Shown: in pieces, positions 29,721 through 48,232 of the stretch | Numbering within the stretch: the first letter of the stretch is position 1 | How the letters are laid out: the number at the start of each line of letters is the position of its first letter | NCBI GenBank assembly: GCA_963776085.1 | Contig: CAVZMS010000055.1 | Location: 1-55,739, forward strand | Direction: 5' to 3' | Source of the DNA: an uncultured delta proteobacterium | GTDB lineage: Bacteria; Desulfobacterota; DSM-4660; Desulfatiglandales; HGW-15 | Length of the DNA stretch: 55,739 nucleotides | The notes under the pieces: model-generated | What the model saw: the letters and a program-made list of their open reading frames with translations, nothing else | What the model was told of the DNA's origin: nothing | The model's database searches: none | Program-made: the position numbers and the translations under genes

Positions 29721-30816
29721 TCACTCAAGATACAAAATCTGCCCAGGCCTTATTATTGATCCCTCTATATTATTTATCTCTTTAAGCTATTTACAGAGAT
29801 CCCCGTCATTCTGGAAATTGTACTAAGGGTATCGCCTTCCTGAACAACATAGCTCTTGGATGATGAACTATATCGGTAAAGATGAGGACTTGGCGGATAA
29901 GGCTTTTAAGACCTCCTGAACCTTTGCGCCGGTACCAAGCGGCGTATTAAGGTTATAGCTGCCGTTCGGCAAATAGTCATCGATAATTTTAGGATTAAGA
30001 TCCCTGATCACCTTAAAGGATGTCCCGAGACCCTTTGCGAAATCCGTTAAATGGATAGGTTTTTTTATATTAACACTGGTCGTATCACATTGGACAGGTT
30101 TATATATCTTTTCTTCAGGCACGCTGTATCCGTAAGGTCTCGGGGTTTTCCATGATTATCTTAATTGCCGCTATGCGGTAGATGTAACGCTCGGTTTCCT
30201 CAGGGAGTTTAAGGCTGTAATAATCACTCTGCTGTTGTTCCCTGATCTCTTTTTCAATGCGGTTTTCCCCGCAGTTATAGGCGGCCATAGCGAGTGTCCA
30301 TGTGCCGAACATCTCTTTAAGTTTCTTCAGATAATTCAGGGCCGCTTCGGTGGACTGCTCGAAATCGCGTCGTTCATCTATCCTTTTATCCGACCTGAGG
30401 CCATTTCGCTTGGCTGTATCGATCAAGAATTGCCAAAATCCTACTGCGCCCTTGTTTGATTTGATATTGGATATGAGAGAGCTTTCAGCGATAGACAGAT
30501 ATTTAATGTCCTGAGGCATTTTTTCCTGGGCCAGTTTCTGTTCAAGATAAGGGAAATAACGGCCTGCCCTTTTTAACCACATCAATACCTGTGCCTCGTC
30601 ACAGACCGCGATAGTGAATTCGCGGTCGAGCATTTCCCATACCCATTGATTGCTGAGAGGCATTGGTTCGTCGCATATGCTTAATGTCTTTGGCAGAAGA
30701 AAGTCTGTCGCAACATGCCGGGATTGGGTCTTTTCCTGGGAAAGCGAGATGGAAGGGCATGGCAAAACTGCAATAATCAGGGTGAGAAAAAGGGGTATTT
30801 TTATGTATCTCGGCAT
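29721..30816 (-). CDS. MltD-like lytic transglycosylase (SLT domain plus LysM), split by indels
   Basis: Signal-peptide-like N-terminus; IAESSL (catalytic Glu), GAVGFWQF, AAYNCGE, PEETERY. Downstream frames read YVVQEGDTLSTIS..IRPGQILYLE* (LysM), ending at 29721. Confidence 0.85.
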
Positions 30817-31082
30817 GATTGTTTTCCTTGAAAGGTTGATATTCATATACTGTCTAAAGATCAGGGAATTCCGCCCATTGAAAAATTGATAGTATAACGC
30901 CAATAGATTTTCATTATCATATAGAAGAAAAAACAGGCGATCAAGAACAATTCAAATCCATGACATCGATATGCATGAACTTTATTGTCAAAATACTAAC
31001 CGGCCGACGCTGGAAAATGTTGAAAGTAAAATTATGTCGTAATATTATCGCTGATAATATCGAAAAAGAGATAGAGATTCCG

Positions 31083-31868
31083 ATGATATTTTATAACAGG
31101 CCCCATAAATTTTACGGGTTGCTGGGCCCGTTATTGATCATATCTCTTCTTTTCACCTATGGGTGCAGCGGGACCATTCCCGTGAAAGTAAAACCCGTAT
31201 TATCAGAAGGGAAGGATATGCTTCCGCAGATGGGTTACACCATCCAGGCAGGGGCATTTTCCAATGTCGACAATGCGGCGCGGCTTACAAAGAGGCTTCA
31301 GGAAAAAGGGCTGGACGCATACTATTTTATCCATGATTCAGGATTTTTCAAAGTCAGATTCGGAAACTATGATTCATTTGATGAGGCCAACAAGGCGGCC
31401 GAACAGATTCGCTCAAGCGGGACCATAGAGGAATATTACATAGTAAAGCCTGAAGATTACCCGGGATTAAAGGATAAAAAGGCCGATAAAGATACATTAA
31501 GAAAAGGCATTGTCCTTTCAGCGAAAAAATTTATTGGTGTCCCATATCTATGGGGAGGCGAATCTGAAAAAACAGGATTTGACTGCAGCGGACTGACAAT
31601 GGCGGTTTATCAGTTGAATGGATTTGAGCTCCCCAGGACATCCGGAAAACAATGGGTCAAAGGCAATCCGGTCAGGCTGAATCAACTATCTGAGGGCGAT
31701 CTCGTCTTCTTCTCCACCAAAAAAAAAGGTGTGATATCACATGTAGGGATTTACGTAGGGATGGGTCAATTCATCCACGCGCCTGGAGAGGGGAAGGAGA
31801 TACGGATGGAATCCCTTTCAACAAACTATTATAAAAGCCGGTTCATAGGGGCGAGGACATACCTGTAA
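31083..31868 (+). CDS. SPOR plus NlpC/P60 peptidoglycan endopeptidase, probable lipoprotein
   Basis: Lipobox-like LLFTYGC; SPOR YTIQAGAFS..NA..FKVRFG; NlpC/P60 PYLWGG..FDCSG..LPRTS..GDLVFF..HVGIY..FIHA. Confidence 0.92.
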   Translation: MIFYNRPHKFYGLLGPLLIISLLFTYGCSGTIPVKVKPVLSEGKDMLPQMGYTIQAGAFSNVDNAARLTKRLQEKGLDAYYFIHDSGFFKVRFGNYDSFDEANKAAEQIRSSGTIEEYYIVKPEDYPGLKDKKADKDTLRKGIVLSAKKFIGVPYLWGGESEKTGFDCSGLTMAVYQLNGFELPRTSGKQWVKGNPVRLNQLSEGDLVFFSTKKKGVISHVGIYVGMGQFIHAPGEGKEIRMESLSTNYYKSRFIGARTYL

Positions 31869-32838: not shown

Positions 32839-33225
32839 TTATTTCGGGCATCCTGAAAGGAATTCATCTATCCTGTAACGCTTGACATACTTAAATATCG
32901 TGGATTCCAATTTGTAAGTCTTATCTTTGCATGGTGTCTCAATGGTAGTCTCATATATCACTGACCCATCCTCCCCTTTTGGAATAGTAGCTTTCAGTTC
33001 CTTGCAGGCTATGGGCTTCTTATCTTCCATGATCTTGAAGATGATAGTTGTATTGTTGCGGTCGAAGTCTTTATAATTGATGACGTTGTATTTAATAAGA
33101 ATCTTATTATCCTCCTGGCATTCACTGCCTTTGACAACTAATTCGAGATCCTTTGCGTAGGAAAGAGTGAATAAAAAACAACAAGAAAAAATAACCGTAT
33201 TTATAATAAGGATAATTTTTTTCAT
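32839..33225 (-). CDS. Small exported hypothetical protein
   Basis: GGAGG RBS; signal peptide MKKIILIINTVIFSCCFLFTLSYA; beta-rich mature part with four Cys. Confidence 0.75.
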   Translation of the reverse strand: MKKIILIINTVIFSCCFLFTLSYAKDLELVVKGSECQEDNKILIKYNVINYKDFDRNNTTIIFKIMEDKKPIACKELKATIPKGEDGSVIYETTIETPCKDKTYKLESTIFKYVKRYRIDEFLSGCPK

Positions 33226-33384
33226 GATTACCTCCTGCCGGTGATATAGCCCCAGCTATTTCATATATGAATCCATCATTTAAGCCTGATCATATTGAAG
33301 ATGATTTTATCAAAGCAAAAATGCTTATGTCAATTCAATTTCCCGCAACCCTGAACGACTGCGAGGACTAACTGCCGGATATAT

Positions 33385-33999
33385 TTATACAATGAGATCT
33401 GTACAGGGGAGGGCCGGAAGGAAGGATTTATCAGGGTTCATCCAGTAAAGATGTTCAAGTGCCCCTTTAAGCGCCTGATTGATGGGGAGTATACGAAATC
33501 CCATACTGGGATTGATCGAGGCTATTCGCATGAAGGCCTCTTGATACACAGGGACTTTCATCCCTTCGGAAACAGATATTTCAGCCCTTTTCACTCTATC
33601 CGGATCAATATTTTTTATGATTCTACAGGGAGAAAATTCGGGTTTATTAAACTTGTTTTTCCGTGAAGCATAGCCGAAGAGCCGGCATAAAAGAGGCCTG
33701 AACTCATAGTAACCACATGGCCCTTTTCCCTCTTGCGGCGGTTCGGATAATAGGACTGCGCACCTGGAGTCCTGATGTTCTTCCTTTTCCTGGATGGATG
33801 TCAACACTTCCTCTTCCTGTCGCCTTGAATAGATTTCCAGCGCGAGCGGAAGTACTTCAAGAATGCTGGCTTCAACCCACCATTCCATGCAACAGATTCC
33901 GCACCCATCCGGGCAGTATATGCCGGTTGCGGCCTGAAAGCGGGCGATCGTCTCGTCCAATCTCTTGTAACCGTCAATAACCTTGCTAATAGTATCCAT
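33385..33999 (-). CDS. YkgJ-family (CxxCxxCC) Zn/Fe-chelating protein
   Basis: CPDGCGICC..CAVL..CGYYEFRPLLCRLFG. Confidence 0.85.
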   Translation of the reverse strand: MDTISKVIDGYKRLDETIARFQAATGIYCPDGCGICCMEWWVEASILEVLPLALEIYSRRQEEEVLTSIQEKEEHQDSRCAVLLSEPPQEGKGPCGYYEFRPLLCRLFGYASRKNKFNKPEFSPCRIIKNIDPDRVKRAEISVSEGMKVPVYQEAFMRIASINPSMGFRILPINQALKGALEHLYWMNPDKSFLPALPCTDLIV

Positions 34000-34086: not shown

Positions 34087-35905
34087 CTACTTAAAGGAAT
34101 CGATATCAAATTGAGATATATGTTGTTTTATCTTTTTCCTTTTGGATGATTCACCAATTATTACCCACAGCCCTTCTCTATTATCGATCTTATCTTTAAT
34201 TTTATCGAGCCCCTGTTTTGTTATCCCTTTGCCGTCCTCGCTGTTTTTCATCTGATCTAATTCCATCAGAAAAAATATTTCAGCCCTGCATTCCACGGGC
34301 AACGCCAATACACCCGTTATCTGATTTTTTCCGCCCTGTCCGATTTTTTTAATCTGTGTTCTGAATATTTTCGAGAAGGTATTCCAGGATGATGTGTAGT
34401 TTTTATCGTCAAAATCCTTCAATGCCAATAGACTCATGGCGTCACGATCATATTTTTCTTCAGGCTGTTCAGTCTCGCCTGCTATTTCAACCGCAGATTC
34501 TTTTGAGGGTTCTTCAAGTGCTTTTGTTTCCCCTTCCTGCGCAGCCAGTTCCTTCAGCCTTGCCTCTTCCTTGGCCGCTGCCTCCTGCGCAGCAGTTCCT
34601 TCAGCCTTGCCTCTTCTTTAGCTGCCTCTTCCTTCAGCCGAGCCTCTTCCTTAATCTTGCCTCTTCTTTCAGCCTTGCCTCTTCCTTTAGCCGAGCCTCT
34701 TCTTTCAGTCTTGCCTCTTCTTTAGCTGAGCCTCTTCCTTCATCCTTGCCTCTGCCAATAAGGCCTTTTTCTTTTGATATATATCAATCTTCTGAGTGAC
34801 CAGAGACAAGACATTAATCTTATCAGGCAGGGACTTTGCCTTTTGCTCGGCATTCTTATAAAGTGTTAATGCATTATTAAAAACTTCTTCTGTCTCCGGT
34901 GTCTGAGCGCCTAACCTGTCGCCTTCCTCGATATCATTGAAAAAGGCCGTAAGCGTTTTCACATTCCCCAACCGATTCTGGTCCAGGTTTTCCTCAAGCA
35001 ATTGCCTGTTATCATACAGGAGTTTTTTTGCGCCTTCATATCCTTCAGGGTTTAGGGCGGCGATAATCCGGTCATATGTCTCACCGGCAAGGCGTTCCTG
35101 CTGTAGACTCTTTTAAGGTTATTTCATCTCGGATAACATCAGATGCCTCTGACTCAATCAGGACATTACCCCGCTTATAGACGGCCTTAACAAAATAGCT
35201 GTCCACTTTTCCTTTTTCTCTGGGCACATCTGCGACGGTTCCTTCCACCGTATCAAAAGGTTCTCCGTTCCGGAAAACTTTGTATCTATAAGGCCTTTCT
35301 TCAGTTGAAGCCTCGCTCCATCCCACGATGTTTTTATCATCTTTACGCTTTACATAGAGGTTAGTTGGAGAGGCGAGCAGAAAGTCGATCTTGATCTTAT
35401 AGACCCTTTCATCCAAGGTGTATATGACGGAGGTATATTTACCTATATCTGATTCGGTGATCTTGTATTTGCTGCTTTTTTCAGTGGGAATTCGATCAAT
35501 GCCGAGATAGTAATCCATGAATTTATCGGTCTCCGGCAGCCAGACCCTGAGCCTGTCTTTACTTATTTCTTTTATAATCCCAAAAGTCTCTTTGTATTCC
35601 GGAACAGCGGCAACGTCCTTTTTCCGGGCATTCGGATCAAAGACCTGTTTTAATATGATAACATTTCTTATCTCTTTTTTTTCAGAGGCATCGGATTCGG
35701 CAAGTTTCTTGAACAGAAGTTTGAGGGGATAATCCTTGTAAATACTCTGATCTGCCGCGAAATCCTCTTTTGTTACAAAATCGATCGAATATGCAGGAGT
35801 GTTAACTATGCATATAAGAAATGAAACCGTCAAGATAAAGGCATATTGAAGAATTGAACGGCTTCTCCCAATAATCTCTTTTGTGAACTTTTTTTTCGTT
35901 ACCAA
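34087..35905 (-). CDS. Exported or membrane-anchored protein: N-terminal hydrophobic segment, Fn3-like domain, helical region, KEEARL repeat stalk, C-terminal helical domain (several indels)
   Basis: ORFs 35081-35905, 34705-35001 and 34087-34437 are joined by coding-like sequence (..EQPEEKYDRDA-MSLLA is continuous). Fn3-like PTNLYV..VGWS..YKVFRNG..YFVKAV..ESEASD. Confidence 0.65.
34530..34755 (-). repeat. Coding 18-bp tandem repeat (about 9-10 units) encoding KEEARL
   Basis: Consensus AAG GAA GAG GCA AGG CTG with synonymous variants, ending in two longer EEARLKELAAQE units. Confidence 0.85.
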
Positions 35906-35938
35906 GGTAGTGCCTCTCTTTTTTAGAATTTATAAGAT

Positions 35939-36754
35939 TTAAACATGCAAACCATGGGGCGATGGCCCCTTTTTCTTCAGAGAAATCTCCTTTTCGATGT
36001 TAAGCGTCTGTCTGATGAAAAAGTTATGGGGTGAGCTGTTTTTAAATATCTCAATCTCTTGGGATTCAATATAAGGAGATTTTCCTTTCCAGGAACGTTT
36101 CATGGTTACACTTAAGGTCCCGTGATATTGGAAATCTTCGTCCTTGCTTATTACATTGTCAAGCCAATGATCGATGAAGAAGATAATACGGAGCCCTTTT
36201 CTATGGGCCTTATCCAATGTCATCCAAAAGTAATGACGCCTTTCCGCGTCCATATTAGTAAGAGGTTCATCAAGAAACCATACCGGCTTTTTATCATCCA
36301 ATACTATATCCATTAATATCTTTTGCTGCTGACCCCCTGATAAAAGATCAGGGGACTCCACTGATGAAAAGGATTCCTCTTTGTCTTTTTCACTACCGTT
36401 TAAGATAATATAGTTATCGCGCGTTGAAATGGGAAGAAAAAAGGCCTTCTGAGGGAAGATACAAAAACTCTTTTCCCTTATTTCGGAGGCCCTCACATAA
36501 TTGAAATTATCCCCGTTATATGCCTCTCCGTTAAAACAGATGGAACCCTTATTTGTTGCCTTTTTCCCAATATTGCCGGCGATTAAGGCAAGTATATTGA
36601 GGAAGGTTGTTTTGCCTGACCCATTATCTCCGCACAGGTAGTAGATCCCTTCTTCAAATTCAAGACTATCGCTTTTAGCAGACGCAAATTCAATACTGAA
36701 TAAGTCGTCATTATCCAGGATCAGGGGAAATGTTATCTTAAAATGGCTTTCCAT
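35939..36754 (-). CDS. Atypical ABC ATPase
   Basis: Walker A GDNGSGKT, Q-loop IFPQ, signature LSGGQQQK, Walker B WFLDEP, H-switch FIDH; GGAG RBS before ATG 36754. Confidence 0.85.
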   Translation of the reverse strand: MESHFKITFPLILDNDDLFSIEFASAKSDSLEFEEGIYYLCGDNGSGKTTFLNILALIAGNIGKKATNKGSICFNGEAYNGDNFNYVRASEIREKSFCIFPQKAFFLPISTRDNYIILNGSEKDKEESFSSVESPDLLSGGQQQKILMDIVLDDKKPVWFLDEPLTNMDAERRHYFWMTLDKAHRKGLRIIFFIDHWLDNVISKDEDFQYHGTLSVTMKRSWKGKSPYIESQEIEIFKNSSPHNFFIRQTLNIEKEISLKKKGPSPHGLHV

Positions 36755-36758
36755 CCGT

Positions 36759-38290
36759 TTATCTCCCTTTATGAAGGGCATAAAGGTTAAGCTTATCACC
36801 GGTAAACTGGCTGAAACACCAACGATTAACGGGGTAGAACAGTATGGAAGCAATGATAAACGTTATTGAAAGTGGGAAGACAAGATAAGTGGATGTATCG
36901 TAACCTAGGGACAGAAGGTAAATTAAATAGCCGGTCAATATTCCGCCTTTCACTATAAGCATCAGAAAAACAGGCAGCAACCAGAAGATGAATAATAACT
37001 CCCTTATCCTGTTTTTGAACATTAACAGAAAGGAGATCTCTGTCTTTAAATGGATAAAAGCGAAAAGGGATATCATAAAAGGAAAAGCGATACCTATGGA
37101 CATGTCGGTTAAATAAAAAAAGATATGATTGGAATATATATCGTCATTTATTTTTTTAACCTTGTCTTCTATGATATGCGACTTTTCATAGGAGAACATA
37201 TAATTTCCTTTAAAATGCAGCTTTTTTATATAGTCCATAAAATCGGTTCGCAGATCGATATCCTCATATAACAGCCAATTCCATTTAGGCTTTAATAAGT
37301 TCGGGGCATATATTGGGATATATCTTGGGTATATATCCATGTCATTGTATAGGAGTTTATCCTTGTATTGAGCCGGGATATCCGTATATGATGCGATGGT
37401 TTCAATACTATTGTCCCCTCATACCTTACGGATTCCCCCAAGTCCATGATATCGGTGGTGTTATCGTCCCTTATATGCGTGAGTATGTATAGAAAATTCA
37501 TGGGAATAACGCTTTCCACGCGGCTCAGGTATGTATTAGGCTCATAGTTTTCTTCCAAAGAAATCCTTTTAATATTATCAATAATAGTCTTTTTTACGGA
37601 ATTATATACCTCCAGTCTTTTGCCGCTCAAGCCCTCCCTTATCATATCGGCAATATCTATAAGGTCTTGCCTCAGGGTCTTATGTCTGGACCCTTACAAT
37701 ATCATCGCTTAACCATGCACCGTTATGATCAAAATAATTATCCCTGAGTTTAATCTCATAGTCCATATCGCGTGTCTTAAAAAACAGTGTCCCACCAACC
37801 TTTTTGATATTGAATAGGTCATACAAAAGATCAAGCGCCCTGTTATCATCATCGAGCCGGCCAGCGGAAAATGGGTAAAAATGAATATACAGATTGTTTT
37901 GATATATAAATGCGCCCTTAACGATTTCGGAACCGTAATCCGATAATCTTTTCTCATGCTGGAAAAGAAAACGGGCGCAGTCGGCAGTTGTCCGCGTTCG
38001 AAGAAAAAATACCTTAAATGCCTTCTCGTTTAGGATATCTCTTTTTTGGATCTCCGTTTTATGAAACCTCATGACATAGCTATAGGTGTTGAAACCCATC
38101 ATCAACATGAAGGCTACGACAAGAAAAATAAATCTCTTCCTTGTGGTCTTCCTGAATAACATCTTCAGGCAGACGATCAGTAATTTCCGGAAATCCTTGA
38201 AGAACAGCACTGAAATCCCTGAGCACATCTGGAATAATGATATTGCCAGAGGGCTGAAAACAACAAATAGAGTTTATTGGATCTGATCAT
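36759..38290 (-). CDS. Membrane protein with FtsX/MacB-like topology (1 TM, large extracytoplasmic region, 3 TM); probable ABC permease split by indels
   Basis: ORFs 37680-38228 (FIFLVVAFMLMMGF TM), 37292-37645 and 36759-37340 (three hydrophobic segments) abut or overlap; stop lies 4 nt before the ABC ATPase start. Start position uncertain. Confidence 0.6.
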
Positions 38291-39156
38291 AGGACCAGAA
38301 GGTTACCTCCATATCCTTGCCTAACCCGATCTCGTATGCGTATTTCATTAATTCTTTTGAAAATTTATTGCCGAACCTGGATATAATGATTACACGGTCG
38401 GCAAATTTTATTCCAAAGCGGGATTTTATATTGTCAAGGATCTTTTGATAATACTCCAATGAGCCGTCTTCCAGCGAAAGTCCCATCTTATCGGTATCCA
38501 ATTCGGCTACGTCTTTATATGTTTTAAAATAGTAGCTGTTATAGCCACCTGATTCGTAGTAGTAAAAATAGTGATTAGCATCGGATTTCTTCAACAGACC
38601 CTTGATGTTTCCATAGTGTTTTCTCAGATCGACATCAAGACTGTTGAAATCGAAAAACAAGAAATTTTTTTGACCGCTGCCTGTACCGGCCTCTTTGAGC
38701 ATTTGGACTAGCGACGCCAAGCCGTCGATAATCAATGTAGGATAATAAGCAGCTGTTGTCGAGTTTGACCTCTATCGAACCTTCCTTTATTCGATAGTCA
38801 ATATTCTGGCTTTGTTTATTATACGTAAATTCTATTTGAAAATTTCCTTTGTAATTATTTTTTATAATGAGTTGAAGATCATAATTGCGCAGAAATGAAG
38901 GAGGGTCGGCCACCAATTCCCAGTAACCTAAATCCCCTAGAGATATAGACTCCTCTTTGGCGTCCTCTATCAGGGCAAGATAATTGTAGCCTGCGGTTGT
39001 CCCCGTAATGCCGATTCTAAAGGCGCTGTTTTTATCGTTATTCAGGTATATCTGTCTTCCTGTAAACAGCGTTTCGGCCTTAATATCGGCAGCAGATGTT
39101 AAGAACACAAGAAACAAAAAGAATGACCAGCTTTTATATTTGTTAGATAATTTCAT
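38274..39156 (-). CDS. Exported hypothetical protein (one frameshift near 38730)
   Basis: Signal peptide MKLSNKYKSWSFFLFLVFLTSAADIKA; overlapping ORFs 38635-39156 and 38274-38735. Confidence 0.65.
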
Positions 39157-39210
39157 GTCCAGTCTTCCCTTTTAGATTTTTAATATTTTTAATACTTAAA
39201 CCCTCCCATT

Positions 39211-41533
39211 TTACTTCTTTGATCTATACAGCTCATTGACCTTCATATACATGAACTTACGTTGAACGGCCTGGTTGAACGAATTGAGATGGAATTCCCG
39301 TTCTGCGAGATATTCACCCAGCGGGCCGCTCTCTTCTCCCAGGGCCTCATTCCAGGTTGTGTCCTCCTTGGGCTCTCTCCTTGTCAGGGCCTTGTAAAAT
39401 ACATCGTCGGCGGATTCGGAGGTCTTCTTTTCTATCAGGGGTTTTATATGGTCGTACAGCATCCTGCATCTTTCAATATCATCCACGCTTACCAGTGAGT
39501 TTATTATGACCAGCTTCTTGAGATCCGATAACGAGACATCGTCCTGATTCCTTATGGCCCTTAAAAAGGATTCAACCGGCTTCGAAGGGATGGCTATCCT
39601 CTCTTCCCAGAACAAGGGATTATCAATGGATTTTATGTGCTTGATGACATGGTTTAATACCTGAATCCTCCGGTCGCTCCAGTTGCGCATCTCGGTCAAT
39701 AACCTCTCGTCTGAAAAGTATAATATAACATCCCTCGGAAGCTCCCCAGCACCTGAGTCGGTAAAGATATGATCCATGTATCTCTGAATAGCGTCTAAAA
39801 GAACCTTGTGCTGGGCGGAAAAATCCTTCTGACGCCCCTCCTCGGATAACAGCCCTTTGGTATTGAACTCAAATTCCCTGAAAATCGTATCACCACCTTC
39901 GGGATTAGCCGCCTCATAACTCGATATAAGATTTGTCAGATCCTTATACGCCCCCTCAGGACTGTCATCCATGTTGACGCCCCCCACCCTCACACCGGAA
40001 TCTGCTCGGATGGATAAGATAGACCTTAAGATTAAGATCCTTCGCCCTCTTAACCGTCATGGAAAAGGCATCATCCGTCAGGTCGTTGGCCCCCGCATCC
40101 GTAATGATGAATAACAGCTTCTCCTGCAGGGGCAGAATAACCTTCTCCTCCTGTAATTTCTCAATCTCATCAAGCGCCTTACTAAAGGCCCTCATCAGCG
40201 GCTCATCATAATTCCTGTCCTTGGACCTCTCCCCAAAACTGAGATCCTCAACCCTCTTCACCCTCGTAAAATCAGGCTCAGCCTTAATATCCACGTCACT
40301 CCCGGAAGAGTCCCGGTAGGCGTATATACGGTTCGTCCTCAGGGCTACACCGGACTCCTCCATCTCACTCACAGCCCTGTTAAAGGATTTAACATAGTCC
40401 GCAAACGGCTTCATGCTCTCGGAAACATCCAGCAAGAAAAAGGTGTTCAGGTTCCCTTTCATGGATTGGTTCAGAAGCCTCATAAGACGCGGCGTAAAGG
40501 CGCCGGGGATAAAAACCTTCACTGAGTCGCCTCCGTCAGTATATTCAGGGTCCCCTAGCTGCGGAAAACCAAAATGGGTATAAAACCTGTGCAGGTTCTC
40601 CTGGTCAAGCTTCTCCACTATGTCACTGAACAGCCTCTCCTTTAAATAGGCATGCCCTACATAAAACCTGTTGATCTCATCCGTCTCCGCGGATACGGCA
40701 CCACCCCCTTTATCATTAAAAAATTGAGCCTCCTTCATGGGATGATAATAGAGCCTCGATCTCCATAACGTGATATAGTCCCTGTCCACCCATCCGATTA
40801 TCCCAAAATCCTCTATGTTGTCCCTGTAATCAAATTCGTAAAAATCCTTGGCCAGAAGATAATAGCCGTCTTTATAATCAAGCACCTTGTAAAAATCATA
40901 GTCCACAAGACTCTCAGGAGGCGTGGCCGTGTCCTTCTTGTGCGCCTCCCACCCGTCCCAGATCGTCGGAAATTCCTTGGCTTCCCCGGGCAGACTCAGA
41001 AAACCATACACGGGTATATATGCCCTCTCTTTGTCCAAAAGGGCGTTGTACCATATGAACCCCTTCTCAAAATCAGGGACATTGATCGTAAATCCCCTCT
41101 TGTCCCTCTGCCTCATGATCTTGACCTCCTGCTTGTCCCAGTCTATCCCGGTTATGAAAAATACCTCCTGGAATCTGATCTCATCACGGGGAGACAGGCT
41201 CGCAAGATTACCCGCAGGAAAAGATGCCTTGGCATGGGTAATAAAAAATATCCCCTCGTTCGGGTCGTCACTGAAGCTGTATCCGTTTCCACCCCCGCTT
41301 CCGGTTGCCCGTTCCGAGGACTTAAGGTTTTCATCAAGCTCGTTATACAGACGCCTCAGCGTGTTCATAAAACCGTCGGTCTCAAATTGACCGTCTTCAT
41401 GAATCCCGGCAGGACACCTGATATTAACCCTCCGGTCTGCGTTAAAATCCGGCGATACACCATATGAGACGCTACAGGTAAATAAAAGAGCGCTGATCAA
41501 CAAAAAAAACAGGACCTTTTTATGATGGACCAC
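39211..41533 (-). CDS. Large exported von Willebrand factor A (vWA) domain protein (frameshift near 40000)
   Basis: GGAGG RBS and GTG start, signal peptide, MIDAS motif FFLLDVSESM, AYRD, LFIITDAGA; overlapping ORFs 39965-41533 and 39211-39993. Confidence 0.78.
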
Positions 41534-41945: not shown

Positions 41946-43341
41946 ATGCGAACCCAAACAGTTTTTTTAAGTCCTGACGAAATGCCCCGCCAATGGTATA
42001 ATATCCTGGCAGATATTAAGATGAACCCGCCCCTTGGGCCTGACGGAAAGCCCATCGGTCCGGATGCCCTGTCCCCCGTGTTCCCGATGAATCTGATCGA
42101 ACAGGAGGTCAGCCATGAAAGATGGATCGACATCCCGGAAGAGATACTGGATGTCTATGCCATCTGGCGTCCCACTCCTCTTATACGAGCCCTGAGCTTG
42201 GAAAAGGCCTTGGAGACCCCGGCCCGTATCTATTTTAAAAATGAAAGTGTCAGTCCGCCTGGAAGTCACAAACCGAATACAGCGGTAGCACAGGCATATT
42301 ATAACAAGGTCTTCGGTATTAAAAGACTCACAACGGAAACCGGCGCCGGCCAATGGGGCAGCGCCCTTGCCTTTGCCTGTAGCCAGTTCGGTCTCGAGTG
42401 CAAGATCTTTATGGTGCGCGTCAGTTTTGACCAAAAACCGTATCGCAAAACCATGATGCAGACCTGGGGTGGAGTATGTATCCCCAGCCCAAGCCCGGAA
42501 ACCAACGCAGGAAGGGAAATTCTTAAAAAGGACCCCGGATACCCCGGGCAGCCTCGGCATCGCCATCAGCGAGGCCATCGAAGCGGCAGTCACCGACCAG
42601 AGCGGGAAGACCCGCTATTCCCTGGGCAGCGTCCTCAATCACGTCATGCTCCACCAGACCATTATCGGTCTGGAGGCCAAACTCCAGATGGAAAAGATCG
42701 GCGAATATCCCGATATAGTCATCGGCTGCGCTGGCGGCGGCAGTAATTTTGCTGGTCTGGCCTTTCCCTTTGTATATGACAAGATCAACGGCAAGCAGAT
42801 CGAGATATATCCGGTAGAACCGTCCGCATGTCCCACCATGACCAGGGCGCCATTTGTCTATGACCACGGCGATACGGCCCGTTACACACCTTTGCTGCCT
42901 ATGTACAGCCTGGGACACGCCTTTGTGCCGCCTCCGGTCCATGCCGGTGGGCTGCGCTACCACGGGATGTCCCCTACGGTCAGCCAGCTTATAGTGGAGG
43001 GCATTATTGAACCTAAAGCCGTCACCCAGTTGGATGCCTATGCTGCGGGCACGACCTTTGCCAGAACCGTAGGTCTCATCCCGGCCCCTGAAACCAACCA
43101 TGCGCTTGCCCAGGTCTTGGAAGAGGCGCGTAAGGCCAAAGAGGAAGGGAAAGAGAAGGTGATCCTCTTTAATTATAGCGGCCACGGCCTGCTGGATCTG
43201 GGATCATATGAAAAATATTTTGCCGATGAGCTTGAAAATTTCGATCTATCCGATAAGGAACTTGAGGCATCAGAGAAGGTCTTTGAGAAGTTCCCAAAAC
43301 CGGCAATACTGAAAAGTATTGATTTTAAAATAAATTTATAG
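41946..43341 (+). CDS. trpB2: Stand-alone tryptophan synthase beta chain, TrpB2 type (frameshift near 42535)
   Basis: WYNILAD, WRPTPL, GSHKPN (PLP lysine), [48 protein letters not shown]; no trpA adjacent. Confidence 0.93.
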
Positions 43342-43394
43342 AATAATGTCTTGAGAGACCTAACCTGAAATTGAGATACAAAGGAGGTTAAAAG

Positions 43395-44355
43395 ATGAAA
43401 ACAATTAGATTCAAGGGATTGTTGGGGGGAATTATTCTGATCTTTGCCGGGGCCATGACATCCGGCGCTTACGATCTGCCGTCAGTCAATCTGGGCTTTA
43501 CAAGTTTTGTGGACGGAGGACCGCCGGCCGGGCCCGGTCTTTATGATACCCAGTATCTGCAATATTGGGCCTCAGACAAATTTACCGACAGTCAAGGGAA
43601 TGAGCTATTGCCCTCAACTGCCGGCGAGGATCTGGGCGCATGGATCAGCCTCACACAGTTAATCTACCAGTCTGATTCAGAGATCCTGATGGGAGGCAAA
43701 TGGGGCATGGACGTGATCATTCCCTATGTAATCCTTGATCTGAATTACAGATACTCCCGGTCCCTTTCCCGAGGATAATGGATCAGGCTTCGGGGATATC
43801 TGGATTGGGCCTTACCTGCAGTGGGACCCTGTAATGGGCGCGGATGGGCCGAGATTCATGCAGCGGGTAGAGTTTCAATCTATTTTCCCTACCGGCAAAT
43901 ATGACCGAAATCATGAACTTAACCCGGGCAGCAATTTTTTCTCATTTGATCCATACTGGTCAGGGACCCTTTTTATCACTCAGCGATTGACCGCAAGCGC
44001 CCGGATTCATTATCTGTGGAATGGCAAAAACGACAAACCCAACCGTGGTTTTGGGGGTGCCTCCGAGACACAGGCAGGGCAGGCCGTTCACGCCAACTTC
44101 GCCATGGACTATGCTATTGTTCCCAACCGCTTCCGGATAGGGATAAACGGCTATTATCTAAAACAGATCACCGATACTAAGGTAAACGGCAATGCGGTCG
44201 CAGGAAGGAGGGAACAGGTTTTCGGCATCGGACCGGGATTCGTCTATCATTTCTCCCAGGATGCGCATCTCTTCTTTAACTTCTACATTGAGACCGCAGC
44301 GGAGAATCGTCCAGAGGGTTCACGTATGAACTTAAGGTTTGTCTACCATTTTTAG
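43395..44355 (+). CDS. COG4313/SphA-type (MetA-pathway of phenol degradation family) outer-membrane channel (frameshift near 43750)
   Basis: Signal peptide, VNLGFTSFVDGGPP, GFGDI..GP..QW, FPTGKYD..NPGSN, GINGYYLKQITD, GIGPG, ENRPEG, terminal Phe. Confidence 0.85.
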
Positions 44356-44377
44356 GCAATATATATACCTTCAAGAC

Positions 44378-44406
44378 GGACGGATCGGCCGAGTGTCGAT
44401 CCGTCC
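44378..44406. terminator. GC-rich hairpin after the channel gene (terminator or stabiliser)
   Basis: GGACGGATCG / CGATCCGTCC 10-bp stem; no T tract, so function is uncertain. Confidence 0.35.
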
Positions 44407-44468
44407 ATGTGCCTCATAACGCCCATACTTTCATCATATCTTTTCTATCTATTGAACCTAAAAAATCC

Positions 44469-44510
44469 TTGACATGAATCAAAATCGTGCTAAAATAGAC
44501 GCAGTGTCTA
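44469..44510 (+). promoter_or_regulatory. Promoter of the TetR gene with overlapping palindrome (candidate operator)
   Basis: TTGACA-N16-TAAAAT with extended -10 TG; TAGACGCAGTGTCTA at 44496-44510. Confidence 0.55.
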
Positions 44511-44531
44511 AAAAGTGAAGGGTACGTCTAA

Positions 44532-45174
44532 ATGGGTATTGCCGAGAGAAGGGAAAGGGAAAAGAGAGGAAGGCAGGATCTGGCCATTAAGGCTGCGATG
44601 GAGCTCTATAATGAGGAAGGCTATCATGCCATTACTATGGAGAAGATAGCCGAGCGTTCCGAACTCAGCAGGGCCGCCCTTTACCTCTATTTCAATACCA
44701 AGGACGAGATATTCGTCAGCGCCATAGTGGCCTGCACGAATTATTTTGGAGATATCCTGCAGGAGATCTATGATCGCAGGGAATCCATCAAGGAGAGACT
44801 GACTCGAGGAACTGTGGGACTCTTTCCGTATATTCTATGAAAAAGACCCTGTTACCTTTAACGCATCCCTGTATTTTCACCAGAGCGAGATAACCCGTAA
44901 TCTCTCTGAAGAGTTGCGCGAAAGGCTCTATGAATCCGGTTCCAGGGTCGTCAGGCTGCAGCACAAGATCATCAAATACGGCGTGGACGAAGGGATCTTT
45001 ATCCAATGTAATCCCATGACCCTTACGGAGGTTATATGGGCCTGCTTTTTCGGGATCACCCAGCTTGAGAGGAGCAAGCAGGTAGTCTCTCGAAAAAACC
45101 ATCTGGACATAACGCGGGATCTTGCCATAAAGGTCCTGGCAAGAAGCATAATCCATAATGGGCCTTCTATTTGA
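44532..45174 (+). CDS. TetR/AcrR-family regulator (frameshift near 44790)
   Basis: GYHAITMEKIAERSELSRAALYLYFNTKDEIF HTH; C-terminal GVDEGIF in 44914-45174. Confidence 0.9.
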
Positions 45175-45218
45175 ACATATCATTTTTTCAAAGGCGTGAA
45201 TTGTTATGGAACTGATTT

Positions 45219-45383
45219 TTGATAAACTCGTAAAAGCCGTCACTCCGGTGAACCCCGGATCGTAGTCCGGGGCAGGAACCGGAATCAAGTATTATCAACT
45301 ATTCCCTAGATTCCCCCGTATCCGGTACGGGGCAGGCTAAGTCAAGCCCGGAATGACGAATAAAGGAGTTATGCAAAGGTCTC
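45219..45383. repeat. MITE/REP-like palindromic element
   Basis: Left end matches the reverse complement of 5678-5715; hairpins CCCCGGA..TCCGGGG and CCCCGTA..TACGGGG; GGAATGAC motif; ends TTATGCAAAGGTCTC. Confidence 0.65.
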
Positions 45384-45433
45384 AAGACGCCGTTAAATAT
45401 GTTCAGAAAATTTCTAATGAATGGAGGTTAATC

Positions 45434-46892
45434 ATGGACATTAAAGCGAAATTGTCCAAAATCGTCGGAGAAAAGAACTTCTCCGATGATCCTAAGGAGT
45501 TGCAGGCCTATGCGACCGATTTCAGTTACACCCCTGCCGGAATGCCCAACTATGTTGTGAAACCGGCAAGTTCCGAGGAGGTCTCGGCGGTTATAAAGGT
45601 CTGCAATGAAAACAGCATCCCTGTCGTGCCGTGCAGTTCCAAGGTCCATTTCTACGGCGCCACCATCCCGAAAGAGGGCGGCGTGGTCCTTGACCTGTCC
45701 AGGATGGACAAGATCCTGGAGATCGATTCGGATAACAGGCGGGTAAGGTTTGAGGCGGGTGTTACCTGGAAAAAGCTGACAGAGACGCTCAAAAAGAAGG
45801 GTCACAGGGTAATTATGCCCCTGACGCCTCCTGCCGAGCGCTCCGTGCTTACCGATTTTCTGGAACGTGAAGAGCCGACCAACCAGGTGTATGATTACGG
45901 CGAGCCCCTTGAGGCCATGGAGGTGGTATGGCCCACCGGCGAGATATTCAGGATGGGTTCCGCGAGCGTGAACGGCTATCCTGATTCCATGTCAAAGGGC
46001 GGCAATCCTTCAGGGCCCGGTCTTGATTTTTACAGGTTTTTCCAGTGCGCCCAGGGGACAATGGGCGTGGTTACATGGACCAACCTGAAGATAGAATCCA
46101 TCCCAAGGATGGATAAGATACTCTTTGCGCCGCTTACGGATCTCGATTACGGCATCGATTTCCTGTATCGAATACTGCCCAGGAGGATCGGCCAGGAGGT
46201 CCTGCTTTTGAACAATGTGGATCTCGCGGCAATCCTGGCGGAGGAATGGCCTGATGATTTTGAAAGACTGGCGGCCGAGCTGCCGCCCTGGACCCTGATC
46301 CTGGTTATCAGCGGCCTCTTGAGACGTCCTGAAGAAAAGATCGCCTACGAAGAGAAGTTCCTGGCCCAGGTAATTAAGAATGAATTTCCTGACCTGCAGC
46401 TGGGCGAGAACCTCCCGGGCTTCCCGGGCCTGAGAAAAAGGCTTCTGCCCATCCTGCGCAACCCCTGGCCGTCGGATGTGCCCTATTGGAAAAACAGCGT
46501 CAGGGGCGCGTGCCAGAGCCTCTTCTTCCATACCAGACCCAATCTTGTTTCATCATTCATGGCAATAGTGGAAGAGATAGCCGCGCAGTACGGCTACCCG
46601 ATCAGTGAAATCGGGATGTATCTCCAGCCGATTGAACACAACAGGGCCATGAGGCCGGAGTTCAATTTCTTCTATGATCCTGAGGACCCGGAAGAGACGG
46701 CCATGGTGGCCGCACTTTACAATGACGCGGCAAAGGCGCTCCTCGCTGAGGGCGCGGTGTTTACAAGGCCCTACGGGGATCTGGCCTCTATCGTTTATGA
46801 AAAGGCAGCGGGCTACGCCAGGCGCGCTCAAGAGGCTGAAGAAGGTTTTTGATCCGAATAACATTATGAATCCCGGCAACTTGTGCTTCTAA
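45434..46892 (+). CDS. FAD-binding oxidoreductase, VAO/PCMH (GlcD-like) family (frameshift near 46820)
   Basis: VVKPASSEEVS, GGVVLDLSRMDKILEID, MEVVWPTGE, AQGTMGVVT, C-terminal FDPNNIMNPG; GGAGG RBS. Confidence 0.88.
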
Positions 46893-46905
46893 GGAGGGAG
46901 AGAGA

Positions 46906-48232
46906 ATGGCTAAGAAACTAAAAGTAAGATACTACAAACCAAAGGCGGATATAGCTCTGGATATAAACGATATCCAGAATTTTGTATATGACATGAGCCG
47001 TTGCATCAAGTGCAAGGGTTGCACATGGGTGGATCATACCTATATGCCGGGCGCGAGGTTCATGACAAGATGCCCGAGCGCGACCATGTACGAGTTTGAC
47101 GCATACGGGGCATATGGAAAGATGCGGATCGGCCATGCCATGGCAGAGGGCGTGCTTGGCTGGAATGAAAAGGCCCTTGAGATCATCTATGCCTGCACCC
47201 TGTGCGGGGCATGCGACGCGGGATGCAAGCGGAACCTTGATCTGGAGGTCGAGCTGACCCTTGAATCGCTCAGGGTGAAGGCCGTGAAAGACGGCGTAGG
47301 CCCTATGCCCGCCCACAAGAAGGTCGCTGACAACATAATCAAGAAACATAACTGTTTCGGGGCGCCTCACAAGGATCGGACGGCGATGGATTCCAAAGGG
47401 AATCACCCCCTCCAAAAAGGCCGATATGGTCTATTTTGCCGGCTGCTACGCCTCCTATGTGAACAAGGAGATCGCTCAATCACCGTCAAGATATTCAAGG
47501 CCGCCGGAACGGAATTCATGCTGCTGCCGGATGAGTGGTGCTGCGGCAATATCCTTTTCTCCGTGGGCATGGTCGATGAGGCCACGTGCACTGGCCCAGA
47601 GAAACGTGGAAGAGATGAGGAAGACCGGCGCCAAGACCCTTATCACCAGTTGCGCCGAGGGCTACAGGATGTGGAAGGTGGATTATCCCAAACTCCTCAA
47701 TATCCCCACGGAAGAACTCGGGTTCAAGGTCCTTCATCTGGTTGAGTATGTCGATGAGATGATCAAGGCCGGCAAGCTCAAGATGAAAAAGCCGTTTGAA
47801 TCGCGTGTGACCTACCATGACGCCTGCAGCCTCAGCCGTTTAAGCGAACCATGGACGCCGTGGAAGGGAAAGCGCGGCTGGATGGGCTGCGTGGAGCCAA
47901 GGCTCAAGAGGCGCCGGGCAACCAACGGGATTTATTCCCAGCCGAGGGATATCCTTAAGGCAATACCCGGCGTGAACCTGGTGGAGATGAAGAGGATCAG
48001 GGAAAACGCCTACTGCTGCGGCGCGGGCCGTGGGACAAAGGAGGCCTTTCCTGAATTTGCAGAGTTTTCGGCGAACCATCGGCTGGAAGAGATCAAGGAG
48101 GTCGGGGCGGAGACGCTGGTGACGGCATGTCCCATGTGTAAAAACAATTTCACCCAGGTCGTCAAAGAAAACGGCGATGATGTGCAGGTCCTGGATATCT
48201 CGGAAGTCATTTGCGCATCCATTAAAGGTTAG
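46906..48232 (+). CDS. Fe-S oxidoreductase, GlcF/HdrD-like (2x[4Fe-4S] plus two CCG domains), several indels
   Basis: CIKCKGC..CP, CTLCGACDAGC, YFAGC, WCCG, TSCAEG, TYHDAC, YCCG, TACPMC. Confidence 0.88.

Follow-up and report, generated by a model that had tools for sequence, protein, structure and literature searches.

ATP-binding cassette (ABC) systems of type VII commonly work with a partner in the periplasm, to which they pass force, and extraction is a theme that they share (PMC12646458); PpkA has a periplasmic von Willebrand factor A (vWA) domain (PMC3224232); TssR, which binds partners, forms part of an envelope complex (PMC10781749); and tagQRST/ppkA/srf neighborhoods that lack a type VI secretion system (T6SS) have already been published for Deltaproteobacteria (PMC3608642). 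The locus analyzed here resides in a 55,739-nucleotide stretch (hereinafter the window) that is one contig (C55) of a 72%-complete genome of an uncultured delta proteobacterium. It consists of five co-oriented genes on the minus strand (34087-41533, the order from gene 1 to gene 5 running from 41533 down) that encode a TssR-like vWA protein, a likely exported protein, a predicted type VII ABC permease, an ABC ATPase and a likely exported modular protein with helical repeats. This operon is real and conserved, and is a variant of the vWA-plus-type-VII-ABC module behind the TagST-PpkA and srf loci. The first-pass annotation, made from the DNA sequence of the window, proposed an undescribed envelope system. 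This holds insofar as two components belong to no known family and no paper on the five-gene operon was found in the literature search (supplements, which could list such loci, were outside it), but has to be qualified given that the module of which the operon is a variant recurs.

Alignment of the gene 1 family identifies 67 loci, 17 from genomes and 50 from metagenomes, some of which are the same DNA in both collections. The named records of the genome loci include Desulfobacteraceae, Desulfobacterales, Candidatus Desulfatibia, Desulfonema, the Olavius Delta 4 symbiont and Thermodesulfobacteriota. Gene order was assessed in the 35 loci with at least 4.5 kb behind gene 1, which represent 26 distinct vWA proteins at less than 95% identity, down to 30%. 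The full five-gene order is present in 34 of these loci (31 by clustering of open reading frames (ORFs) and 3 more once the missing gene was located), as expected if the five genes are co-conserved; in the 35th (L075), the contig stops before gene 5. Gene 2 is located behind gene 1 in 51 of the 52 loci with at least 1.2 kb downstream, the exception being L035, and the genes that flank the operon vary between loci. In the window, the intergenic gaps, measured from starts and stops, are 54 (genes 1-2), 45 (genes 2-3), 4 (genes 3-4) and 33 (genes 4-5) nucleotides, so that the tight spacing initially read from the sequence stands, except that the presumed overlap of genes 2 and 3 is a 45-nucleotide gap. 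The operon is rare, being found in 5 of 209 genomes of the class and in 2 of 401 genomes of a phylum sample, and the genes for the vWA protein and the permease co-occur in the same 5 of the 61 genomes of the family. The permease alignment reached 106 proteins, none of which is named outside Desulfobacterota; no cultured strain was found among the loci retrieved, and a single-protein scan of genome contigs gave no match. Among the data sets listed as holding the operon, none is an RNA one.

Gene 1 (39211..41533, minus strand, as all operon features below) encodes a likely exported protein of about 775 amino acids that contains an N-terminal beta region, a vWA domain (approximately residues 356-590) and a helical C-terminal part. 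The predicted model (pLDDT 80.2) has a vWA fold (Z score 15.1, root-mean-square deviation 2.7, 169 aligned residues). The top Foldseek rows are integrin beta, with beta I domains in the lead, and vWA domains of pilus adhesins; the integrin matches are generic for vWA domains. The intact metal ion-dependent adhesion site (MIDAS) claimed for this protein is present, and so are the sequences DVSES, AYRD and ITDAGA and the accompanying GWV..ITLW segment. The DxSxS motif (DVSES, 40415..40429), the conserved DxxYxE motif (40202..40219) and the TDAG motif with the last MIDAS aspartate (40091..40102) are all kept in 54 of 54 full-length gene 1 ORFs (at least 700 amino acids). By analogy, the glutamate of DxxYxE is likely to take the fourth MIDAS position, as its counterpart does in integrin beta I domains.

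A search with the gene 1 family profile retrieves 56 proteins among 1.84 billion, and its weak tail (E-values from 3e-8 to 9e-4) includes proteins that pass the Pfam TssR cut-offs. Comparison of the family profile with TssR-like proteins yields a probability of 99.8% over 410 columns. Against six TssR-like proteins that score over a Pfam TssR cut-off, the N-terminal part alone and the vWA part alone reach 97.6% and 98.0%, respectively, and these six intermediates match annotated TssR with the probability of 99.9%. As a control for the comparison with TssR-like proteins, the unrelated YfbK vWA family gives 8%. The vWA part also matches srf/PpkA-type vWA profiles (94%). Thus, the resemblance to both TssR and srf/PpkA proteins that was originally read from motifs is supported by profile comparison. 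The family members themselves show no match to Pfam TssR. An Atlas query with the Cloacimonadota homolog P0102 returns the family's own cluster first and TssR clusters next, with a PpkA-family cluster among the weak structure rows. In a quick FastTree tree, whose long branches and midpoint root allow no order of events to be read, the gene 1 family is a branch apart from TssR, TssR-like and srf/PpkA proteins. The DxS/TxS MIDAS pattern is absent in both annotated T6SS TssR proteins (L106:11821-14169 and L107:11911-14322) and is kept in all 18 TssR-like and 5 srf-type relatives. Judging by sequence, the gene 1 product is a relative of TssR and not a TssR, because it occupies a separate tree branch and does not directly match annotated TssR.

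Three unusual forms of the vWA gene were observed. In L035 (375-3251), the protein is fused to a C-terminal SPOR domain (E-value 1e-12), a single case that hints at a periplasmic, cell-wall-linked site. In a 1.4-kb contig, a vWA gene fragment (L076:1-719) directly precedes the C-terminal domain of gene 5, which is either an internal deletion or a misassembly. In the 345-amino-acid protein P0071, from a 1.3-kb contig, an SLT domain is joined to a portion of the vWA protein, possibly as an artefact.

Gene 3 (36759..38228; the start is at 38228 or 38210) encodes a permease that shows no match to Pfam, NCBIfam or PDB sequences. Four transmembrane helices (34-52, 376-394, 408-426 and 449-467), with a large periplasmic region of about 320 amino acids between the first and the second, agree with the helices of the predicted model (pLDDT 84.7) and confirm the 1+3 topology. 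In an exhaustive structure alignment of this model, the first 11 ranks among 48,161 chains all go to type VII permeases (Z scores 12.2 to 9.1), including MacB (12.2, root-mean-square deviation 5.0, 341 aligned residues), LolE (11.6), FtsX (11.4) and YbbP (9.2). Accordingly, the suspected MacB/FtsX-type fold is predicted by modeling as well. Given that the operon has one permease gene, the permease would be a homodimer, by analogy with the family. Gene 4 (35939..36754), whose reading frame is intact, encodes a divergent ABC ATPase, yet the Walker A motif (36608..36631), the Q-loop, the LSGGQ signature, Walker B with its DE, and the H-loop are all recognizable, as they are in 38 of 38 ORFs of at least 240 amino acids; this ATPase is therefore atypical in its divergence but complete in its catalytic motifs. 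As first noted for the window, genes for a substrate-binding protein, TolC or MacA are missing; these, as well as LolA, are not found among the recurring neighbors of the operon.

Gene 2 (38274..39156) encodes a likely exported protein of about 293 amino acids (350-370 in the distant clade described below) for which searches of Pfam, NCBIfam, PDB sequences and the Atlas identified no family; it does not match TssP either. Inspection by eye suggested a degenerate vWA domain in its C-terminal half, an idea that was rejected for want of profile support (E-values 0.11-0.77). The product of gene 5 (34087..35905), which is also likely to be exported, starts with an N-terminal domain that is conserved, continues with an Fn3-like domain (for which Pfam gives one weak match, in L071), one or more 119-residue helical repeats, a linker and a helical C-terminal domain, and shows no match to TssO/TssQ-type proteins. 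The repeat is present in 1 to 14 copies across relatives, 7-8 in L025 and its relatives and a single one in the window genome (34750..35091, profile match of 127 bits). The low-complexity charged KEEARL linker (34545..34749, limits approximate), which the first-pass annotation took for the defining stalk and spacer, turned out to be lineage-specific, KEEARL-type repeats being abundant in only 2 of 41 gene 5 relatives, both of one clade; the conserved stalk is the 119-residue repeat. By eye, the proteins of genes 1, 2 and 5 appear to have cleavable signal peptides; the N-terminal hydrophobic segments of genes 1 and 5 are over the threshold, and that of gene 2 of L027 is under it. A crude pattern detects lipobox-like text in only 3 of 67, 3 of 58 and 1 of 41 ORFs of the three exported proteins, none of it conserved, and the signal region of gene 1 contains no conserved cysteine, which leaves no support for a membrane anchor in these proteins.

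TssC is encoded in 6 of 18 operon genomes but not beside the operon in the loci read, and in 9 of 61 family genomes but in none of the 5 operon carriers (72-95% complete), which also lack detectable Hcp (0 of 5). No T6SS genes were found among the recurring operon neighbors, and SrfB was detected in 0 of 18 operon genomes, all of which are incomplete assemblies, with 2 of 2 positive controls recovered. Ser/Thr kinase and FGE-sulfatase (TagR) genes are not located beside the window operon or among the recurring neighbors in the main clade; FGE domains are present in 17 of 18 operon genomes, so that their presence per genome is uninformative. The operon thus appears independent of T6SS and srf, as the first-pass annotation held for the window. 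The possibility that it substitutes for a missing T6SS membrane complex was rejected: of the three T6SS loci scanned, all have TssM and two have TssL (a scan of 3 of the 6 TssC-positive genomes and 42 of 96 listed ORFs). The T6SS loci of two operon-bearing genomes (L091 and L093) contain MORN-repeat and SPOR-domain genes behind vgrG. Among plasmid TagS-like loci, genes for a vWA protein, an ATPase and a permease occur together in 5 of the 6 read; four of these adjoin srf genes, and the fifth is part of a T6SS locus that includes a kinase. A Sagittula plasmid (L099:10420-26062) combines, in a single run, SUMF1 with genes for a TssR/PpkA-like protein, an ABC ATPase, an FtsX-like permease and MotA/TolQ/ExbB; the annotation of the 31 kb read includes no T6SS gene. 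Comparison of the gene 3 permease with profiles of six TagS-like proteins yields E-values of 0.17-0.31; by fold or annotation, both are FtsX-like. The operon proteins do not match TssN, TssO, TssP or TssQ in comparisons with two-sequence profiles.

A distant clade (L068, L069, L071, L074 and L075; approximately 30-35% identity) retains genes 1-3 as far as its contigs extend. In the four of these loci that reach past the ATPase gene (L068, L069, L071 and L075), it is followed by an extra gene, which is located between the ATPase gene and gene 5, encodes a protein of 260-360 amino acids of no known family, and is confined to this clade. Ser/Thr kinases are encoded directly upstream in 2 of the 5 loci (L071 and L074) and FGE-sulfatase (TagR-like) domains in 4 of the 5, twice as the C-terminus of gene 5. 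This association is only a hint because a single data set is the source of four of the five loci, and FGE domains are widespread in these genomes.

Taken together, these observations are compatible with an ATP-driven mechanotransmission machine that switches a periplasmic vWA scaffold and operates without a kinase, a reading to which we assign roughly an even chance of being correct. Under this hypothesis, the products of genes 3 and 4 would form a homodimeric type VII ABC motor that opens and closes its periplasmic heads, and the moving heads would switch a scaffold of the three likely periplasmic proteins (genes 1, 2 and 5). By analogy with type VII systems, the strictly linked exported proteins are likely to be the partners of the motor. 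The TssR-like protein would grip and release an acidic ligand via its MIDAS metal site, and the repeat protein would be a tether of variable length that sets the reach. Given that no kinase or T6SS gene travels with the main-clade operon, the output could be structural, namely holding or releasing an envelope attachment point. More speculatively, and with considerable doubt on our part, the operon could be an old envelope machine in its free-standing form, in which a type VII ABC motor drives a MIDAS scaffold and which works without a kinase or an injection system and was the source of both the Bacteroidota TssR and the proteobacterial TagST-PpkA by co-option, with the 119-residue repeat (1-14 copies) as a molecular ruler for reach across or beyond the periplasm.

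Several observations weigh against the mechanotransmission scheme. The link to TssR runs via intermediates that were picked by the gene 1 family's own profile; directly compared to two annotated T6SS TssR proteins, gene 1 gives no match (E-value 0.14), and the comparison of its C-terminal third with the C-terminal part of TssR gives an E-value of 0.07, with shallow profiles. Foldseek ranks MacB first for the permease model but weakly (E-value 0.076, TM score 0.35-0.39), and a VIA Z score near 12 is moderate for a helix-rich protein. In L035, which is just under the 4.5-kb cut-off, the vWA gene is followed by unrelated genes, without genes 2-5 in the 4.2 kb behind it. By our estimate, a stack of fourteen repeats would probably be longer than the periplasm is wide. 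Finally, Pseudomonas TagST pulled down no (stable) sensor partner (PMC13713981) and, therefore, such motors may act on small molecules.

Three other explanations can be weighed on the same evidence. The operon might encode a sensor of envelope damage or contact, similar to TagQRST-PpkA, whose signal would reach, in trans, a Ser/Thr kinase or a T6SS encoded elsewhere. The kinases and FGE-sulfatase domains of the distant clade, the srf/PpkA-type match of the vWA domain (94%), which is periplasmic in PpkA (PMC3224232), and the TssC genes of the 6 operon genomes are all consistent with such a role. We nevertheless consider it unlikely because no kinase or FGE gene recurs beside the main-clade operon, TssC and Hcp were not found in any of the five operon carriers of the family, of which one is 95% complete, TagS profiles do not match the permease at the sequence level, and the distant-clade association suffers from the commonness of FGE domains and the single source of four loci.

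The high ranks of LolE and YbbP among the fold matches of the permease, along with extraction as a common theme of type VII systems (PMC12646458), suggest instead an extractor akin to LolCDE or YbbAP, which would take a lipid or a lipidated molecule out of the inner membrane and pass it on to a carrier, either gene 1 or gene 2, the latter being eligible as a protein of no known family. This seems rather improbable given that it does not account for why a MIDAS protein and a repeat protein of variable copy number are strictly required, and that no hydrolase, LolA-like or biosynthetic gene is found among the recurring neighbors. No more probable, in our judgment, is a surface adhesin, that is, an integrin-like vWA protein that the repeat stalk would present on the outside of the cell and that the ABC motor would assemble or release. 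Adhesin stalks vary in repeat number, as gene 5 does, and several carriers are Olavius symbionts or Desulfobacterales, L025 and its relatives having 7-8 repeats. The integrin and pilus adhesin matches fit as well but are the generic ones discussed above; moreover, the operon lacks a linked gene for an outer-membrane channel, a porin or secretion, no anchor is seen in the exported proteins, and the SPOR fusion in L035 points to the periplasm. The kinase-free mechanotransmission machine accordingly remains our preferred reading.

In the window, genes 1, 2, 3 and 5 change frame, as revealed by tblastn with intact relatives, in which these proteins are 775, 293, 483-489 and 532-2108 amino acids long, respectively. 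The breaks are located near 40003 (gene 1), 38750 (gene 2), 37691 and 37418 (gene 3), and 35104 and 34592 (gene 5), and all six are gone in the contigs from four related sediment runs, in every run covering the site; these runs are relatives, mostly 90-99% alike to the window, and not the same strain. The low-complexity stretch of gene 5 (near 34600-34710) contains additional frame changes for which no listed indel accounts. Most likely, the frameshifts are assembly errors because ordinary genes of the window are split as well, e.g., the PALP gene (41946-43341), with many more across 41946-48232 and elsewhere; recent decay of the operon in this one strain is still conceivable as the cause since the comparison runs are relatives. 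Two co-oriented genes follow the operon (32839-33999), one encoding a CxxCxxCC protein and the other a 128-amino-acid protein with a hydrophobic N-terminus; they are not conserved with the operon. About 2 kb from the operon end, there are divergent genes for an SLT lytic transglycosylase and a SPOR-NlpC/P60 protein (30115-31868), which are not recurring neighbors elsewhere. In two other lineages (L031:12000-16077 with L032, and L045), the operon adjoins a gene for an ECF sigma factor and one for a vWA protein of the YfbK type, which represents a different family.

In PMC10781749, the paper in which the T6SS-iii membrane complex was defined, the origin of this complex is described as difficult to trace, given that its gene set is not encoded at any locus independent of T6SS. 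With its intact MIDAS, a relative of TssR outside T6SS is a candidate for one of the five parts of this complex. Similarly, a 2026 study (PMC13713981) does not define what the TagST ATPase does; the five-gene operon, which is compact, free of kinase and T6SS genes and of a size that E. coli could express, offers a simple means of finding out on what a vWA-linked type VII motor acts. The reach of these implications is limited by the rarity of the operon, the lack of cultured strains among the loci found, and a role deduced from sequence and predicted folds.

With FtsEX-EnvC, MacAB-TolC, LolCDE-LolA and YbbAP-TesA, the operon shares the predicted fold and topology of the permease, the adjacent ATPase and co-encoded exported partners. 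Unlike these type VII mechanotransmitters, it includes no EnvC, MacA, TolC, LolA or hydrolase, the partners being a vWA protein, a protein of no known family and a repeat protein. Gene 1 resembles the TssR of the Bacteroidota T6SS-iii complex TssNQOPR in length (about 780-800 amino acids) and in the N-terminal and vWA parts, which match TssR-like proteins, but it lacks a lipobox, contains the canonical DxSxS MIDAS that is missing in 2 of 2 annotated T6SS TssR proteins, has its own branch in the tree and is paired with an ABC motor, outside of any T6SS locus. Compared to TagS/TagT-TagR-PpkA of the Pseudomonas H1-T6SS and to the T6SS-less srfBC-vWA-tagTSR loci, the permease is about 485 amino acids long and has no detectable sequence match to TagS, the gene order differs, and the main clade has no TagR, kinase or srfB and possesses two additional proteins of no known family. 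What unites the operon with these loci is a vWA gene of the same superfamily adjoining genes for an ABC ATPase and an FtsX-like permease, a module that is also known without T6SS (PMC3608642).

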